This document shows, piece after piece, positions 3,674 to 62,501 of a stretch of 64,000 bases of DNA. Made by a program: the position numbers and the translations under genes. The notes beneath the pieces were generated by a model that saw only the letters and a program-made list of their open reading frames with translations, was not told where the DNA came from and searched no databases. Every line of letters starts with the position of its first letter. Position 1 is the first letter of the stretch. Source of the stretch: an uncultured Eubacteriales bacterium (lineage in GTDB: Bacteria > Acidobacteriota > Aminicenantia > Aminicenantales > Saccharicenantaceae); contig CAZPEP010000068.1 of NCBI GenBank assembly GCA_964585685.1, forward strand, positions 91,686 through 155,685, read 5' to 3'.

Positions 3674-4476
3674 TCGACCTTCACTGTCATATCCTGCCGG
3701 GCCTGGACGATGGGGCCAGGGACCTGGCCCATGCCGTTGCGATGGCCCGGATCGCCCGCGACGACGGCATCACGCATATCGCGGGGACGCCGCACCTGTA
3801 CAAGGGGAGCTTCGAGTTCCCCGACCTCGGCGTGTTCGACGAGGCCCGTGACCGGCTTGCCGGAGCGCTTCGGGACGAGGGCATCGCCGTTACGATCCTG
3901 CCCGGGGCGGAGGTTCACATCACTCACGGCCTCCTCGGCGAGGTCCGGGCCCGCAGGAAGAGCCTGTCCCTCGCGGGAAGCGCCTACATCATCGTGGAAT
4001 TCCCCCACGATCACGTCTTCTCCGGGGCGAAGGACCTGTTCTTTAACCTCATGAGCGAGGGTGTCATCCCGATCATCGCCCATCCCGAGAGGAACACGAT
4101 GTTCGCCCGATCGCCCAAGCTCCTCTTCGAGCTGGTTGCCATGGGCGCCCTGGCCCAGGTGAACGCCGGGAGTCTGATGGATGCCCACGGCCTTGAGGCG
4201 CGCGAGGCGTCCCGCAAATTCCTGGAGCTGGTCCTTGCGCACTTCATCGGGAGCGACGGCCACAACACCCATTCCAAGGCTCCGAGGCTCGCGGCCGCCA
4301 CGGAGATCGCCGCCGCGGTCATCGGTGAGGCCGGCGCCTCGGCCCTCGTTACGGGTAATCCCCTGGCCGTCATCGAGGATCGGGAGATCCCGTACCGTCC
4401 CGACCCTGTCGATCCCGTGGGGAAGGACAGGAAGCTCAAGTTGAGGATCCCCGGTTTCCTGAGGCCGGGAAAATGA
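3670..4476 (+). CDS. PHP-domain protein-tyrosine phosphatase (CpsB/YwqE type)
   Basis: N-terminus MIDLHCHILPGLDDGA..HIAGTPH is a PHP metal-binding motif. The start overlaps the wzc stop by 4 nt (ATGA). Confidence 0.85.
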   Translation: MIDLHCHILPGLDDGARDLAHAVAMARIARDDGITHIAGTPHLYKGSFEFPDLGVFDEARDRLAGALRDEGIAVTILPGAEVHITHGLLGEVRARRKSLSLAGSAYIIVEFPHDHVFSGAKDLFFNLMSEGVIPIIAHPERNTMFARSPKLLFELVAMGALAQVNAGSLMDAHGLEAREASRKFLELVLAHFIGSDGHNTHSKAPRLAAATEIAAAVIGEAGASALVTGNPLAVIEDREIPYRPDPVDPVGKDRKLKLRIPGFLRPGK

Positions 4477-15370: not shown

Positions 15371-15553
15371 GGGCACTTCCTCATGTGTTCCCTTATACAT
15401 TATATCGTCGACGGGATTCAAGGGGATTCGCTCCGGCCTTAACCCGTTCGCCGACGTTACCCCGCCTTTCATGGCGGGGCCGCGAAGCGAGGCTCAGGGC
15501 TAATTCCGAAAAAGCCCCGGTCCCGGCCTTGCCAGGACCGGGAAGTCAAGGGG

Positions 15554-15582
15554 TTGACAGCCCGACCGGCGGAGTTTATCAT
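15554..15582 (+). promoter_or_regulatory. sigma70-type promoter (TTGACA-17-TATCAT)
   Basis: TTGACA at 15554-15559, a 17 nt spacer, then TATCAT at 15577-15582. This is about 25 nt upstream of ATG 15608. Confidence 0.6.
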
Positions 15583-41049: not shown

Positions 41050-41766
41050 TCACCGCGTCCCGTTCAGGACATCCAGGACCTTGAATAAGTAATCGTATTC
41101 CGGCCGGTCCACGGTGTTCTGGCCGAGGTACTTGAACTGGAGCGTCCCTTCAGCGTCTACGACATAGACGCTCGGAATGTTCTGATCGACCTTGCCGCCG
41201 CCCCATTCCGTCATGAAAAGTCCGAGGCTTTTAGACAGTTCCCTGTCCGCGTCGATGAGAATGGGGAAGGGGGTCGAAACTTCGCCTTTCTTGACGTTCA
41301 GATCGAGAGGGAAGAGCTGGCGGTAGCGTTCCATCGATTTTTTACCCTTCTCGTCGAGCTTGGCGGGGTCGGCGGGGTATTTTCGCTCCTTGACCTTGTC
41401 CAGCTGTTCGGGCAGGACATCGACCCAAGCCTTGACAACGTCCGGACCGTAGGGCAGGACGATGAGGACTTCGACGTTGTATTTCGTTCGGATCTGTTGC
41501 GTTCTCTCGAGCTCGATGAGCTCGGCATACTTGTAGTTGCAGATCGTGCACCAATAGTTCTCGGCGGCGTAGCTCCTGGGGAACATGATCATGACGTTCT
41601 TCCCCTTGAGGGCCGAAAGGGTAACCGTCCCGCCCTGAAAGGCGGGCAGGGTGAAGTCGGGCATGGGCTGTCCAACGGTCACGGGCTTGGTTTCAACTTC
41701 CTGCGCAGCTGCGAGCCCGCAGGCAATAACCAGGACGATAACGGCGAAGAAAGCGGTTCCCTTCAT
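41050..41766 (-). CDS. secreted thioredoxin-fold (redoxin/peroxiredoxin-like) protein
   Basis: Signal peptide present. WCTIC thioredoxin-like motif. Redoxin-type fold. Confidence 0.6.
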   Translation of the reverse strand: MKGTAFFAVIVLVIACGLAAAQEVETKPVTVGQPMPDFTLPAFQGGTVTLSALKGKNVMIMFPRSYAAENYWCTICNYKYAELIELERTQQIRTKYNVEVLIVLPYGPDVVKAWVDVLPEQLDKVKERKYPADPAKLDEKGKKSMERYRQLFPLDLNVKKGEVSTPFPILIDADRELSKSLGLFMTEWGGGKVDQNIPSVYVVDAEGTLQFKYLGQNTVDRPEYDYLFKVLDVLNGTR

Positions 41767-41838
41767 GGTTTCCTCCTTCCCAGGATATCAACCGGGAGGA
41801 TATTCCACCCACGGATCAGCGTCAAGAGAGGGATACAG

Positions 41839-41895
41839 CCCGGGTGGACTCCGTATAATGCGATGGCTTTTTCGCGAAAACCCTGATATAAATGC
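41839..41895. repeat. copy 1 of a conserved ~55 bp intergenic element containing the perfect palindrome TTTTCGCGAAAA
   Basis: CGGGTGGACTCCGTATAATGCGATGGCTTTTTCGCGAAAACCCTGATATAAATGCC. The palindrome is at 41869-41880. It lies about 100 bp upstream of ATG 41993. Confidence 0.7.
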
Positions 41896-41992
41896 CTTCG
41901 ACGAAGGCACCGGCTCTTGGGGTGCCGGGCAACGCGGACGGGTGCCGCGGGCTTCCCGCCGCGAATGAGTCCGCTTTCAGGAGGAGGACAGC

Positions 41993-43141
41993 ATGACATC
42001 CAGTTCTTTACCCACGGCCGCTCTTGAAAAACTTGTCGTCCCCAAGATCAACCACATCGATCTCGTCACCGTCAAGCTGCCGTTCGTCGCGCCGTTCGGG
42101 ACGAGCGTCTATGTCTGGACCGACAAGGAAGCGATGCTCATGCGGCTCGAGTCCGGCGGCGTGATCGCCTGGAGCGAGTGTGTCTCCGACCCTGACCCGT
42201 TCTACTTCTACGAGACGAACGCCACGGCCCGCCACATCATCAAGGGCTTCCTTCTGCCCCTCATCGAGCCGGGGATCGCGCTCGGCGAACTCGAGGCGCG
42301 CTTCCGGCACGTTCGCGGCCACGGGATGGCCAAAGCGACCATCGAGAACGGCCTCCTCAACCTGATCTCGATGCAGCAGGAGATTCCTCTCCACCGGCTC
42401 CTCGGCCGGCCGGCAAAAAAGATCATGTCGGGTCTGAGCATCGGGCTCAAGGAAACGCAGGACGCACTCCTCGCCGCCGTCGAAAAAGCTGTGGCCAGGA
42501 AGTACCACCGCGTCAAGATGAAGATCAAAAAGGGCCAGGACGTCGACTGGGTGGCGGCGGTGCGGGACCGTTTTCCGGAGCTTCGGCTCATGGTCGATGC
42601 CAACGGCGATTATTCGCTCGACGACATCGGTCACCTCAAGCGGCTTGACGCCTTCAACCTGATGATGATCGAACAGCCGCTCGCCTACAACGACATCTAC
42701 CAGCATGCGGCGGTCCAAAAAGAGTTGAAGACGGCGATTTGCCTCGACGAGTCTATCCACAGCCTGGCGGATGCGACCACGGCCATCGCCCTCGGCGCCT
42801 GCCGTATCATCAACGTCAAGCAGGGGAGGGTCGGCGGCCTGATGGAGTCGATGAGGATCGCCCGTACCTGCGCCGACCACGGCATCGATGTCTGGTCGGG
42901 CGGCATGGACGAGACGGGCATCGGCCGGGCCGTCAACATCCACCTCCAGACGGCCGAAGGATTCACCCTGCCCGGCGATACATCGGAAACAAGCAATTAC
43001 TTCGACGAGGACATCGCCGAGCCTTCCGTCTTCCTCGGTTCCGACGGGTTTATCGCCATCCCGGAAGGCCCCGGCATCGGCGTAAAGGTCAGGCCGGAGC
43101 GCATTCTGAAACGGGCCGTCCGCATGGAACGCCTGGTCTGA
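41993..43141 (+). CDS. enolase-superfamily enzyme, o-succinylbenzoate synthase / N-acylamino-acid racemase subgroup
   Basis: Catalytic KxK (VKMKIKKG). Metal ligands in MVDANGD, MIEQP and CLDES. Second catalytic Lys in INVKQGRVGG. Confidence 0.8.
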   Translation: MTSSSLPTAALEKLVVPKINHIDLVTVKLPFVAPFGTSVYVWTDKEAMLMRLESGGVIAWSECVSDPDPFYFYETNATARHIIKGFLLPLIEPGIALGELEARFRHVRGHGMAKATIENGLLNLISMQQEIPLHRLLGRPAKKIMSGLSIGLKETQDALLAAVEKAVARKYHRVKMKIKKGQDVDWVAAVRDRFPELRLMVDANGDYSLDDIGHLKRLDAFNLMMIEQPLAYNDIYQHAAVQKELKTAICLDESIHSLADATTAIALGACRIINVKQGRVGGLMESMRIARTCADHGIDVWSGGMDETGIGRAVNIHLQTAEGFTLPGDTSETSNYFDEDIAEPSVFLGSDGFIAIPEGPGIGVKVRPERILKRAVRMERLV

Positions 43142-43168
43142 GGCGACCGCAATAGAGGACGAGCTGGA

Positions 43169-44611
43169 TCATTTTTTCAGCACTTCCCAGTTCATGTCCC
43201 ACTGCCACTGATCGAAATAGATATTGCCGCCGTTCCATTCCACTTCGCCGCGCTGTGAATCCACGGTTTCTGAGCGGAAATGATCCTTCACCGGGGTGAA
43301 CGGCTGGGTGAGCGCATCGTTGAAAATGAGCCTATAGCTGTCCATGCCGCTCAGGTAGAACCATTTGAGCTTTTCGTCGGCGGTCTTGCGCAGGCCGTAG
43401 GTGACATCCATCGGCACCCACCCGTACGGCTCGAAGTAGATCATGCCCCAGTCGTGCATGCTGTCGGTCGGAGGCTTGAATTCCCAGCCGGACTGCCAGC
43501 GCGCCGGAATATCGTTCATCCGGCAGAGCGTGATCAGGATCATGGACTGGATGCCGCAATCGCCATGATGATTTTCGTAAGCGTACGTCGAGAGGTTGGG
43601 GATCGTCGAATACTCCCGGGACGAAGCCCAGGGGATATTCTCCTCGACCCAGGCGAATAGTTTTTGGGCGATACGGTAGGGATTCTTTTCCGTACCGACA
43701 ATGCGTTTCGACAGCTCGCGCAGGGAGTCCGTGAAGACGATATGCGGGTATTCCTGCTCGAGATAGGGTTTCAGGGCGCCTTTGGGATCGACCGGCCTGA
43801 CCCGGTCCGGATCGATATCGACATAGACGCCGGAACTCGAATATTCATACTCCAAGCTGAACCCCGTCGGCTGGCCCTTCACGGCATTCTTTTCAAAATA
43901 GATCATGCGCTGAAGGTCTTTATTGGGCGCGAGCCGGTGTTCGGCCGGATCGGTCTTCATCAGATGGATGTCGGTTTGGCGCTGCGGGATCTCCCGGGGA
44001 TAGGGGATCCAGCAACGGATCAGCTCGCCGGCGGGCGTTACGTCGGGATTCACGGTGATCATATAGCGGATCCGAAGCCGGACCGGCTTTGCATAAGTTT
44101 GCTTCTGCCGGAGGACTTCCTCGCGGATCGTTTTTATGTGTTCGTCGAGGTCCAATGCCCCTTCTGCCGGTGGCTTGGCCAGCTCATCCGCATGCCTTTC
44201 GTTCCAGATGCGACGGCACTCTTTATCGATCCGGAACAGATTGCGGGCGGCGCTGTTGAAATAGCGCTTCTCGCCGTCGATGGTCGTGCATTCAAGGGAG
44301 CGCTCCTTCTCCCAGCGGGCAAGATCCTGGTCGGTAACGGCCGGGATGCTCTTCTTGATGAAATCAAGGACATCCTGCCGGCTCTTCGTGAAGTCCTTTC
44401 GTATCCGTTCCATCCGTTCGATCTCGAATCGCATTTCGTTGCGCAATGGATTGCTGACCGTCTCGTCGTGCGCCAGGCGACTCTGGATTACTTCGCGGGC
44501 TTTGACAAATTCACCGTTGGCAATCAGCGTCCGGTAATCGGCCTGTTGATCAGATGCGCAGCCAATCCAGCAGATGGCAGTTGTCAGAATCAGACTTATG
44601 ATACTTTTCAC
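43169..44611 (-). CDS. transglutaminase-like superfamily lipoprotein
   Basis: Lipoprotein-type signal peptide. Transglutaminase core GDCGIQSMILITLCRMNDIPAR. Confidence 0.75.
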   Translation of the reverse strand: MKSIISLILTTAICWIGCASDQQADYRTLIANGEFVKAREVIQSRLAHDETVSNPLRNEMRFEIERMERIRKDFTKSRQDVLDFIKKSIPAVTDQDLARWEKERSLECTTIDGEKRYFNSAARNLFRIDKECRRIWNERHADELAKPPAEGALDLDEHIKTIREEVLRQKQTYAKPVRLRIRYMITVNPDVTPAGELIRCWIPYPREIPQRQTDIHLMKTDPAEHRLAPNKDLQRMIYFEKNAVKGQPTGFSLEYEYSSSGVYVDIDPDRVRPVDPKGALKPYLEQEYPHIVFTDSLRELSKRIVGTEKNPYRIAQKLFAWVEENIPWASSREYSTIPNLSTYAYENHHGDCGIQSMILITLCRMNDIPARWQSGWEFKPPTDSMHDWGMIYFEPYGWVPMDVTYGLRKTADEKLKWFYLSGMDSYRLIFNDALTQPFTPVKDHFRSETVDSQRGEVEWNGGNIYFDQWQWDMNWEVLKK

Positions 44612-44771
44612 TGATAATCTCCTTTTCCGCGGCGCGAGGAAGGGTTGCTTCCTGCGATGAATATCCCGTCCTGATCATGTGATGATGGGATACTACCGCC
44701 GTCCGTACAACCATGTCAATCACCGCGAGAACCGATGCCCGAAGAGCGTGTCTCGATGAAAAACCCTGCCG

Positions 44772-44828
44772 CCCGGGCGGACCCTAAAAATGCGATGGCT
44801 TTTTAGCGAAAACCCTGCTATACATACC
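44772..44828. repeat. copy 2 of the ~55 bp intergenic element (palindrome degenerate: TTTTAGCGAAAA)
   Basis: CGGGCGGACCCTAAAAATGCGATGGCTTTTTAGCGAAAACCCTGCTATACATACC, about 85% identical to copy 1. It lies about 95 bp upstream of ATG 44920. Confidence 0.7.
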
Positions 44829-44919
44829 ATTGACAATTTTCTTTCGGCAGGGAAAAGCAAGTCCCGAATGATCTACAGTCTGCCGGAAAAAAGATAAGCA
44901 ACCTGGAGAGGAGGAAGAA

Positions 44920-45387
44920 ATGGAATCAAAGAAGAAGCAGATGCTCATGCGGCAGAAAGCCTCTTTTGAACATGAACTGAAGGACCGGCTCTCTTTTCTG
45001 ACGGGGAAAGGGATCAAATCTCCCAAGGCCGACAAAGATACTATCGTTAGGAAAATAAGGGCAGATATCAAGGCTGGGAACAATAGGCTGAGGCTGATTG
45101 CCGACAACGAAAAGAGAACGGAAGAAATGGCGAAGATAAAGGCGGAAAGGGCGGCAGCCCACCGGAAAGAACAAGAAGGCGGCAAAGGCGAGAATCCTAA
45201 GAAAGCCCCCGAAGAGGGCAAAGGAAAGAAGATAAAGGCAGAAAAGAAAGCCGGCCCTTCGAGAGCACCGGAAGGCGGCAAAAGCCGGAAAACGACGGAA
45301 TCCCCCGAAGAAGGCAAGACAACAACGAAAAAGAAAGGTGAAGAAACGAGGGAGAAACCGGCAAGCCAAATGAAGGCAGATAAGTAA
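44920..45387 (+). CDS. Lys/Glu-rich low-complexity protein (histone H1-like tail composition), hypothetical
   Basis: RBS ggagaggagg. The 155 aa product is about 45% K/E/R/G with KKAPEEGKGKK-type repeats. The coding strand is strongly purine-skewed. Local GC is lower than the surroundings. Confidence 0.5.
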   Translation: MESKKKQMLMRQKASFEHELKDRLSFLTGKGIKSPKADKDTIVRKIRADIKAGNNRLRLIADNEKRTEEMAKIKAERAAAHRKEQEGGKGENPKKAPEEGKGKKIKAEKKAGPSRAPEGGKSRKTTESPEEGKTTTKKKGEETREKPASQMKADK

Positions 45388-45463
45388 TTAAATAAATCCG
45401 GCAAATACAGGGTCACTTTCCAGGTCTATGAGGTTGTGACCGGGGACGTGCTTAAGACGAGGA

Positions 45464-62174: not shown

Positions 62175-62386
62175 GTCCTCGAGGCGTCCGTTCATCGGTC
62201 GATCAACGGACGAATTACGACGATACGCCGGTTATTGACCCGTTCGCCGCCGCCACCCCGCCATGAAAAACGGGGCCTAAGATCGGAGCCCCGCATTTCA
62301 AGGCGGGGACGCGAAGCGCGAAATGAGGCTCAGGGTCAATCCCGAACAAGCCCCGGCCCCGGCATTCATTCCGGGGAGTCGAGGGA

Positions 62387-62415
62387 TTGACAAGGCGGGG
62401 GAACTCGTTTAAACT
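62387..62415 (+). promoter_or_regulatory. sigma70-type promoter for tRNA-Lys (TTGACA-17-TAAACT)
   Basis: Consensus -35, 17 nt spacer, +1 about 8 nt before the tRNA. Confidence 0.6.
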
Positions 62416-62428
62416 AGGTGCGTTTTTC

Positions 62429-62501
62429 GGCCCGTTAGCTCAATTGGTAGAGCAACAGACTCTTAATCTGTGGGTTGTAGGTTCGAGTCCTACACGGGTC
62501 A
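62429..62501 (+). tRNA. tRNA-Lys (anticodon CTT), CCA not encoded
   Basis: Acceptor GGCCCGT/ACGGGTC (one GU pair). D-arm GCTC-AATTGGTA-GAGC. Anticodon arm ACAGA-CTCTTAA-TCTGT. T-arm GTAGG-TTCGAGT-CCTAC. Confidence 0.85.

Follow-up and report, generated by a model that had tools for sequence, protein, structure and literature searches.

Two closely similar copies of a short intergenic segment, each standing in front of a different gene, raise the question of what this segment does in the genome of a member of Candidatus Aminicenantes and why it occurs twice within so short a distance. Below, the window denotes the whole stretch of DNA that was analysed (64 kb), P the repeated element, P1 and P2 its two copies, and KE the K/E-rich ORF that follows P2. 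We consider it likely that P is the promoter region of KE, a lineage-specific small gene of Candidatus Aminicenantes, and that the second copy in the window arose from the splitting of an operon.

The repeat pair and its promoter-like layout

Segments 41838-41902 and 44770-44834 (plus strand, 65 bp each) form a real repeat in the 64-kb window. They share the 29-mer AATGCGATGGCTTTTTMGCGAAAACCCTG exactly (41857-41885 and 44789-44817), for which 100 dinucleotide shuffles produced 0 matches, and the repeat search returned an ungapped core (41857-41902 versus 44789-44834) of 46 nt with 87% identity. Allowing one indel, the likeness extends back to 41838/44770 (GCCCGGGYGGAC...), reaching 81% over 67 aligned nt, and it halts at TTCGAC/TTGAC (41902/44834), some 3 nt beyond the predicted transcription start. 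An earlier, sequence-only reading of this DNA had correctly placed both copies in divergent intergenic regions (by our count 98 nt before the ATG at 41993 for copy 1, and 92 nt before the ATG at 44920 for copy 2) and had correctly described a palindrome that is perfect in copy 1 (TTTTCGCGAAAA, 41869-41880) and off by one base in copy 2 (TTTTAGCGAAAA, 44801-44812). The features of the region are the following (promoter boxes, starts and leaders are predicted):

41050-41766, minus strand: redoxin gene, divergent from copy 1
41797-41825, minus strand: canonical promoter-like TTGACG-17-TATCCT for the redoxin gene (flank conserved in L007 and L084)
41838-41902, plus strand: copy 1 (P1), now directly 5' of the enolase/MenC gene; weight-matrix score 51.4 bits
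41864-41869, plus strand: TGGCTT, hexamer at the -35 position of copy 1, with 17 bp between it and the -10 box; the conservation across loci sets in at this hexamer
41869-41880, no strand: TTTTCGCGAAAA, the perfect palindrome, read as promoter spacer, within the imperfect inverted repeat GGCTTTT-N5-AAAACCC (41865-41883)
41884-41892, plus strand: TGA-TATAAA, putative extended -10 of copy 1; start predicted near 41899
41903-41992, plus strand: putative remnant of the old KE-enolase spacer that now forms the leader of the enolase gene; 41940-41992 aligns with positions 3943-4000 of L103 (KE stop to enolase start)
41993-43141, plus strand: enolase-superfamily gene (o-succinylbenzoate synthase type); Pfam MR_MLE_C 1e-47; TIGR01928 316.7 bits (cutoff 200.65)
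43169-44611, minus strand: transglutaminase-like gene, divergent from copy 2
44690-44719, minus strand: canonical promoter-like TTGACA-18-TAGTAT for the transglutaminase-like gene, separate from P2
44770-44834, plus strand: copy 2 (P2); weight-matrix score 62.2 bits
44796-44801, 44801-44812 and 44816-44824, plus strand: boxes of copy 2 (TGGCTT, TTTTAGCGAAAA and TGC-TATACA, respectively); start predicted near 44831
44831-44919, plus strand: predicted KE leader, conserved across loci (middle part 80%, 3' part 88%)
44920-45387, plus strand: KE gene (155 aa); a helical hairpin and a disordered K/E-rich tail are predicted
45388-45429, plus strand: start of a conserved tail 3' of the KE stop (about 85 nt in many loci, truncated in the window)

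The analysis supports an association of P with a promoter, and the TATAAA/TATACA hexamers near the ends of the copies, which had already been pointed out from the letters alone, are best read as -10 boxes after a TG, found one base before the hexamer in the window copies and in 55 of the 56 aligned loci (L039 has CG). P would consist of T[G/A]GCTT at -35, a 17-bp spacer with a T4-N5-A4 inverted repeat and an extended -10 (TGnTATAnA), and transcription would begin about 7 nt after the -10 box, giving a leader of about 90 nt; for P1 and P2 alike we infer promoter activity and a start site. TATA is invariant in the 56 aligned loci (T-12 and A-11 never vary), and the -10 ends in A in the majority of loci (TATACA, TATAAA, TATATA) and in T only in L110 (TAGGGT). 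The spacing T[GA]GC[TC]T-N17-TA is common to the window copies, L102, L103 and the distant L110, L118 and L119; in these last three, whose KE homologues have 43-55% identity, T[GA]GCTT-N14-TGn-TA is held over a diverged spacer. Several lineages carry a 2-nt insertion right after TGA, which gives TATATA and preserves the spacing.

Within the 31-nt core (to the ATA after the -10 box) the two window copies have three differences, all at the three most variable columns of the core, and a fourth lies 2 nt further on, in a well-conserved column. The remaining well-conserved core positions are unbroken in both, and both score high on the weight matrix for P (maximum 68 bits; KE-linked copies score at least 30). 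Copy 1 resembles the majority type (87%), and copy 2 resembles L084 (85%), slightly more than the two copies resemble each other (81%).

Extended -10 promoters, known from E. coli and Gram-positive bacteria, tolerate a weak -35 and rely on the TGn. P resembles this sigma-70-type class in its TG one base before a TA-starting hexamer, its poor -35 match and its position about 90 nt 5' of a gene with a strong Shine-Dalgarno sequence (GGAGAGGAGG at 44905-44914 for KE, very strong; GGAGGAGG at 41980-41987 for the enolase). It departs from the class in that the non-consensus TGGCTT is itself conserved, the -10 usually ends in A and not T, and the 17-bp spacer is almost invariant and holds an inverted repeat. 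TGGCTT has two of six bases in common with TTGACA and does not pass as a -35 resemblance, and a simple sigma-70 consensus scan called neither copy. Textbook TTGACA-17-TAnnnT promoters are present elsewhere in the same genome and window, and L056, which has lost P, carries a canonical TTGAAA-18-TGGTATATT in its stead. Other sigma factors were considered and set aside: sigma-54 needs 12 nt from the G of GG to the G of GC (TGGCAC-N5-TTGC) and TGGCTTTTTNGCG has 9, 3 too close, while the sigma-32, ECF and FliA types misfit in motif or spacing by direct reading of the sequence. A literature search on Aminicenantes promoters yielded nothing relevant.

P and the KE gene in related genomes

The association of P with KE was assessed in 80 loci that were collected through the KE protein (not DNA), and the flanks of which were then compared. 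Conservation in these loci jumps at (G)ATGGCTTTTT, a point 123-126 nt away from the ATG in 66 of 69 loci, and the mean pairwise identity amounts to 92.7% in the core, 89.4% at KE codon positions 1+2, 83.7% at KE third positions and 45% in the upstream flank. Across about 90 related Aminicenantes loci P stands at a fixed distance of ~124 nt 5' of the KE start, always in the same orientation and normally once per genome. The exact core pattern, which recovers only ~54% of true P copies, had 17 true genome matches, all of them Aminicenantes-type (the other four were chance matches in unrelated taxa). A KE orthologue follows 77-226 nt downstream in 15 of these 17 (101-102 nt in twelve); of the two others, one runs off the end of its locus and the second is a partial duplicate of the unit in one MAG (SPRUCE_56, L015). 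This duplicate is the exception to a rule of one exact core per genome, always before KE, that holds in ~15 Aminicenantes genomes, two of them complete chromosomes of 4.3 Mb.

The KE family comprises 118 clusters at 50% identity. Helices are predicted for residues 4-28 and 36-86, the AlphaFold model is a helical hairpin (pLDDT 62.6), and searches found no Pfam or NCBIfam match and, with Foldseek against the PDB, nothing below E = 3. A leader peptide at the edge of the conserved block (ATG GCT TTT TGG CGA AAA CCC TGA) was rejected, as codon 4 is TAG/TGA in several lineages and the ATG is replaced by GTG/AAG in others.

A generic REP-like repeat that also falls inside genes, the outcome that the sequence-only reading had set against its own proposal, does not describe P: the element has a fixed place before KE, and nothing else of the kind was found in 588 kb. 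The weight-matrix scan of the window (64 kb) and 524 kb of related DNA gave no scores between chance level and the true copies. A single-copy site of the dif or parS type was likewise rejected, given the fixed distance and orientation to one gene and the conserved leader after P.

A probable operon split as the source of the second copy

In L102 and L103 the gene order is redoxin (minus), P-leader-KE-enolase (plus) and transglutaminase (minus), with one P shared by KE and the enolase gene (the stop of KE and the ATG of the enolase gene overlap in L102), while L007, L084 and L086 have redoxin (minus), P-KE and transglutaminase (minus). In the window the leader and KE are absent behind copy 1, which is joined at ~41903 to the old KE-enolase spacer, and a second P-leader-KE stands beyond the transglutaminase gene; the same arrangement is repeated in an independent assembly (L109). 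Orthologues of the enolase have P only where KE stands in front of them (L102, L103), and none has it in L104-L107, where the context is another. The gene table of one further enolase orthologue (P0122) lists, in order, an unannotated 142-aa ORF (possibly KE), a trypsin/PDZ protease, the enolase and a transglutaminase on the minus strand.

We reason that one P drives a KE-enolase operon in close relatives, between divergent redoxin and convergent transglutaminase genes, and that this operon came apart in the genome of the window. The original P would have lost the leader and KE that followed it and, as P1, would now drive only the enolase, while the P2-leader-KE unit stands on the far side of the transglutaminase gene. 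The route may have been a duplication followed by a deletion, or recombination between lineages; the P core is too short for a tree of its copies. The window thus appears to hold two copies of P because the one-promoter operon of close relatives was split here. Synteny and breakpoints are seen directly in the sequences; the operon split that would explain the second copy is essentially the local duplication named in advance by the sequence-only reading as an outcome against its own proposal. The two downstream genes, earlier called unrelated, are so in sequence only; close relatives have them side by side in a single operon.

The same comparison bears on another suggestion, which we regard as highly improbable: that P, promoter included, is a miniature mobile element of the REP, MITE or Correia class and has spread through the genome. 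P does share with REP and MITE repeats its shortness, its intergenic position, an inverted repeat and more than one copy in the window, it precedes two non-homologous genes, and the neighbourhood of the KE unit differs widely between loci (47 upstream and 43 downstream context types); independent partial duplicates of P also occur in two other lineages (L046, beside an IS3-type transposase fragment, and SPRUCE_56 L015). However, P is effectively single-copy per genome, and two copies in 64 kb with one per genome elsewhere do not amount to the many dispersed copies of such a repeat. Its orientation and distance to one gene are constant, the aligned flanks of the shared segment show no terminal inverted repeats or target-site duplications, and the duplication in the window is accounted for by rearrangement of the neighbouring genes.

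Operon splitting places the window close to the promoter reuse (putative mobile promoters) described as a highly similar promoter 5' of non-homologous genes in one genome (Nijveen, Matus-Garcia & van Passel 2012, PMC3575422). A near-identical P precedes KE and the enolase gene, and P1 is parted from its original downstream gene, so that the case falls within this description; it differs in that the enolase was formerly the distal operon gene of P and in that the window has no mobile element. Since the enolase would already have been transcribed from P as the distal gene of the operon, the split preserves existing regulation and entails no rewiring. The window offers a well-documented but unremarkable instance of promoter reuse and reveals no new kind of genetic element.

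The inverted repeat in the spacer

Within Aminicenantes the spacer is nearly invariant, more so than a plain promoter needs, so that a further constraint, from a regulator or an RNA role, may be at work on it. None of the 56 loci departs from the T4/A4 arms or the GG/CC bases, and the symmetry is eroded in L118 and L119; at the centre of the palindrome most lineages have G, others A or C (G > A > C), and the palindrome is perfect only in copy 1.

The sequence-only reading took the palindrome for a dimeric transcription-factor operator overlapping a promoter and serving a small regulon. The association with a promoter stands, the palindrome being its spacer, and the regulon does not: in ~15 genomes the exact core occurs once each, always before KE bar the one partial duplicate. 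An operator for a small regulon with the enolase and KE among its members seems to us quite unlikely, although the repeat (GGCTTTT-N5-AAAACCC) is centred at about -25, between -35 and -10, a typical location for a repressor or a MerR-like protein, its region is more conserved than a promoter spacer requires, and in L070/L071 both arms are altered and still perfectly complementary (GGATTTT/AAAATCC). Weight-matrix and palindrome searches of the window and the 524 kb of related loci found no third operator site, the sole near-match (56410) lying inside an ORF and within chance expectation. Complete chromosomes have one exact copy each, both genes of the supposed regulon are former operon partners, enolase orthologues in other contexts (L104-L107) are without P, and no linked regulator gene is conserved near the KE unit. 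MerR promoters typically have spacers of 19-20 bp; P is like repressor and MerR-type operators in the position of its dyad within the spacer, unlike the MerR type in its 17-bp spacer, and unlike both in its lack of additional sites and a dyad centre that varies between loci (the A-tract, too, is eroded in L118 and L119).

In most loci a -10-like TAAAAT/TATAAT lies just 5' of the conserved block, and because of it an upstream start is possible in those lineages. On this rests an alternative that we hold to be unlikely, namely that a transcribed leader begins with the conserved block. Transcription would start around GGCUUUUU from the upstream TAAAAT/TATAAT, the T4/A4 repeat would fold into a hairpin at the 5' terminus with a stabilising or regulatory effect on the mRNA, and of this RNA copy 1 would keep only the first ~40 nt. 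In most loci the hexamer precedes GG by 6-7 nt (consensus CCTCCTAAAATGCGATGG), copy 1 having a perfect TATAAT, conservation sets in almost exactly at the upstream predicted start, the inverted repeat is able to pair (99% of cells paired), and the rest of the leader is conserved too. Against this, at least ten lineages are, by eye, without a -10-like hexamer before GATGGC (L026, L042, L090, L079, L032, L087, L016, L102, L103, L055), and the upstream box has no matching -35 in either window copy. The pairs of the inverted repeat never vary and hence give no covariation, RNAalifold yields -2.6 kcal/mol (-2.58), and single-sequence folding with shuffles gives z-scores of 0 to -1.4. Other candidate helices are broken as often as compensated, and three hand-drawn helices found no support; the one compensatory event is common to four related sequences, and shuffle controls were not exceeded, in tests whose power suffers from how little the sequences have diverged. 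Distant homologues retain the spacing of the two boxes on either side of a 'stem' region that has itself diverged. Rfam searches over the element, the leader and the 3' tail gave no match at the gathering threshold or at permissive E-value cutoffs (1-10), and the small-RNA promoter that had been offered as another explanation finds no support.

Returning to P as the promoter of KE, it may be bound by a regulator or a special sigma factor, and T4-N5-A4 may be a single autoregulatory operator. A more speculative proposal, conceivable if doubtful, is that the almost invariant 34-nt core (TGGCTT, T4-N5-A4, TGnTATAnA) goes beyond a housekeeping promoter and serves as the dedicated site of an alternative sigma factor or of a regulator, with KE perhaps feeding back on it, that this factor controls an abundant family of small basic Aminicenantes proteins, and that the ~0.7-kb P-leader-KE-tail unit could also move between sites as a self-contained expression cassette.

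With P in the role of a promoter, the window would illustrate the break-up of an operon in which expression is kept, as each of the two genes comes to have a promoter copy to itself, and the intermediate gene orders survive in related uncultured genomes. Candidatus Aminicenantes is, to our knowledge, a phylum without a cultured member or mapped promoters, and P provides a first usable description of a strongly constrained, predicted promoter and leader in it. The analysis also flags the KE proteins as a family that is probably highly expressed and is modelled as a helical hairpin with a K/E-rich tail.

Two copies of a conserved element and their setting

A conserved, promoter-like element (P) is present twice in the window (copies P1 and P2). 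In agreement with the sequence-only reading, the gene positions place both copies in divergent intergenic regions, and the second one precedes an ORF rich in lysine and glutamate codons (K/E-rich; KE):

41050-41766 (-), redoxin gene
41838-41902 (+), P1
41993-43141 (+), enolase-superfamily gene
43169-44611 (-), transglutaminase-like gene (TGase)
44770-44834 (+), P2
44920-45387 (+), KE
45388-45429, first half of a conserved tail, after the KE stop

The 29-mer AATGCGATGGCTTTTTMGCGAAAACCCTG was found in exact form at 41857-41885 and 44789-44817; 100 shuffles gave no match. The ungapped repeat spans 46 nt at 87% identity (41857-41902 versus 44789-44834), and with one indel allowed the similarity reaches back to 41838/44770 and stops at 41902/44834. 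The palindrome noticed in the same reading is indeed perfect in P1 (TTTTCGCGAAAA, 41869-41880) and altered in P2 (TTTTAGCGAAAA).

Occurrence of the element and the KE unit in other genomes

The search for further copies, proposed in the sequence-only reading, was run with the exact pattern GGCTTTTTNGCGAAAACCCTG on one genome per species (in a collection from which the window's own genome, with contig JGI 3300036982 Ga0393266_0000003, is absent), and returned 21 matches: 17 in Candidatus Aminicenantes-type MAGs and 4 chance ones in unrelated taxa. A KE orthologue lies downstream in 15 of these 17, usually at 101 nt; locus L003 ends before any ORF, and L015 (5761-5887, SPRUCE_56 MAG) holds P, the leader (the stretch between the predicted transcription start and the KE ATG) and the start of KE up to codon 19, beyond which the frame diverges. 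The latter is a truncated second genomic copy of the unit, whose full copy is L001. Two complete 4.3-Mb chromosomes yielded one match each; since the exact pattern picks up only 54% of the true copies, a single copy per genome should be read as a good estimate and no strict count.

As this first set had been chosen by the pattern itself, we used the KE protein, independently of the DNA pattern, to gather another 80 loci. Here conservation jumps at (G)ATGGCTTTTT and continues to the ATG, over 123-126 nt in 66 of 69 loci. Mean pairwise identity amounts to 92.7% in the 34-nt core and 45% in the upstream flank, to 79.9% and 88.4% in the middle and 3' part of the leader, and to 89.4% and 83.7% at KE codon positions 1+2 and third positions, respectively. 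Within the 31-nt core consensus (aTGGCTTTTTnGCGAAAAcCCTGnTATAnATA) the window copies differ exactly at its three most variable columns, and a fourth difference (G in P1, A in P2), 2 nt past it, falls where the alignment is well conserved. Most lineages have G at the centre of the ‘palindrome’ and some have A; C occurs there in P1 alone.

The window and 524 kb of related loci were scanned with a weight matrix derived from the core. P2 and P1 reached 62.2 and 51.4 bits, respectively, and KE-linked copies at least 30 bits, while no other site in these sequences exceeded 14 bits (shuffled maximum, -10.6 bits). Palindrome-only searches gave one extra near-match (56410), situated inside an ORF and within chance expectation. 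The earlier view of P as the operator of a small regulon is thus largely unsupported, and so is that of a repeat element, with one KE-linked exact match per complete chromosome. REP or MITE elements, sigma-54 sites and described RNA families were considered for P and rejected.

Some loci depart from the common arrangement. In L046, P and the first part of the leader are duplicated (1747-1826 and 2877-2956, 80 nt identical, 1.1 kb apart), which is an independent event; a C-terminal fragment of an IS3-type transposase (ORF 1869-2099) lies between the copies. The leader of L005 (minus strand; P near 4220, start of KE at 3971) has an insertion of ~125 nt with two repeats that are GC-rich and hairpin-like (GGACCCCCGGGCAAAGCCCGGGGC / GGATCCCCAGACAAAGCCTGGGGCC). 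L056 (185-408) has lost P together with the larger part of the leader, and a canonical TTGAAA-18-TGGTATATT stands in their place.

KE encodes 155 aa, for which an AlphaFold model (pLDDT 62.6) predicts a helical hairpin (residues 4-28 and 36-86) followed by a K/E-rich repeat tail that is disordered; no structural, Pfam or NCBIfam match was found, and the family comprises 118 clusters at 50% identity. In four homologues of 187-219 aa (P0002, P0003, P0004 and P0014) the tail contains a 32-aa unit (KIKAEKKAAPQKEPEGGKGEKHEKAPEEGKGN-like), of which some lineages carry one or two additional copies. The Shine-Dalgarno sequence of KE is strong and its third codon positions are conserved, which suggests high expression. 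In many loci (e.g., L019, L022, L046) ~85 nt 3' of the KE stop are conserved (TCAAAAAAAATACGGCAAATACAGGGACACTTTCCAGGTCTATTTCGATATTGGCCTAAAAAGTCACAGGTTTTTCAAGGCC), of which the window has the first half only; the conserved unit therefore extends from P to this tail (~0.7 kb). Its flanks (L001-L101, tblastx) fall into 47 upstream types in 80 loci and 43 downstream types in 69, and enolase contexts are likewise varied, a diversity that may reflect the poor synteny of these genomes and not mobility of the unit.

A putative promoter inside the conserved block

Sequence comparison makes it probable that P is a promoter, formed within the block by T[G/A]GCTT, a 17-bp spacer and TGn-TAnnnn, which would work like an extended -10 promoter; to this extent the sequence-only reading is supported. 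Both boxes keep their spacing in KE homologues of 43-55% identity (L110, L118, L119), where the spacer has diverged, and are absent in the distant homologues L113, L116 and L120; by our estimate, chance would produce the two-box pattern in well under 1% of 200-nt upstream regions. A recurrent 2-nt insertion directly after TGA (giving TATATA) leaves the spacing intact, the spacer of L070 and L071 measures 16 bp, the similarity between P1 and P2 stops ~3 nt past the predicted start, and in L056 the canonical pair of hexamers stands where P has been replaced. Transcription from TAAAAT/TATAAT upstream of the block, which would then form the 5' end of the RNA, is attractive too, since conservation sets in near the start predicted for it. 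However, in at least 10 lineages whose flanks differ, a -10-like hexamer is missing from this place, and covariation, a stable fold and an Rfam match were all looked for and not found; a promoter inside the block is therefore favoured.

This preference carries caveats: the -35 hexamer of P shares only 2 of its 6 bases with the consensus, the last base of its -10 box is usually A, and a consensus promoter scan of the window did not call it, textbook TTGACA-17-TAnnnT promoters being present elsewhere. Because the non-consensus -35 box is conserved and the T4-N5-A4 spacer nearly invariant, P may be recognised by a further factor, either a regulator or another sigma.

A second, unrelated pair of upstream sequences (15439-15560 and 62235-62400; ~90-130 nt at 77-84% identity) lies directly 5' of canonical promoters (TTGACA-17-TATCAT at ~15553 and TTGACA-17-TAAACT at ~62388), which precede a protein gene and a tRNA (62429-62501), respectively. 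L010 has a related stretch (3869-3981); here, too, sequence upstream of promoters may be shared. Directly 5' of P in L102 (3405-3450), GGGAGTTGACAAGGCGGGGGTATCAT is close to the window's tRNA promoter region GGGATTGACAAGGCGGGGGAACTCGTTTAAACT (62384-62416), but has only 9 nt between its own two hexamers.

Probable splitting of a former operon

The closest relatives (L007, L084, L086, L070, L071) have the order redoxin(-), P-KE(+), with TGase(-) next in L007, L084 and L086, where the contig continues. L102 and L103, whose enolases are orthologues at 88-90% identity, show the order redoxin(-), P-leader-KE(+)-enolase(+), TGase(-); the KE stop of L102 overlaps the enolase ATG, hence KE and enolase belong to one operon with a single P in front. 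The window enolase occupies the exact KE position of L007, blastn homology jumps from window position 43107 to 45349, and homology to the spacer between KE and enolase in L103 covers the 53 nt 5' of the enolase ATG, so that the leader and KE (~560 nt) are missing behind P1, which joins the old spacer near 41903. The full P-leader-KE unit is present beyond TGase. Given that L109 (an independent assembly from another sample) has the same redoxin-P1-enolase-TGase order, the arrangement is not an artefact of assembly. P is absent where enolase orthologues stand in unrelated contexts (L104-L107).

The split could have arisen by duplication and subsequent complementary deletions, or by recombination between lineages; P1 is marginally nearer to the majority type, and P2 to L084, than they are to each other, in a segment too short to decide. 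The window's duplication fits the definition that Nijveen et al. (PMC3575422) gave of promoter reuse; in this case P already served the second gene, as the distal one of an operon. The finding is ordinary in kind.
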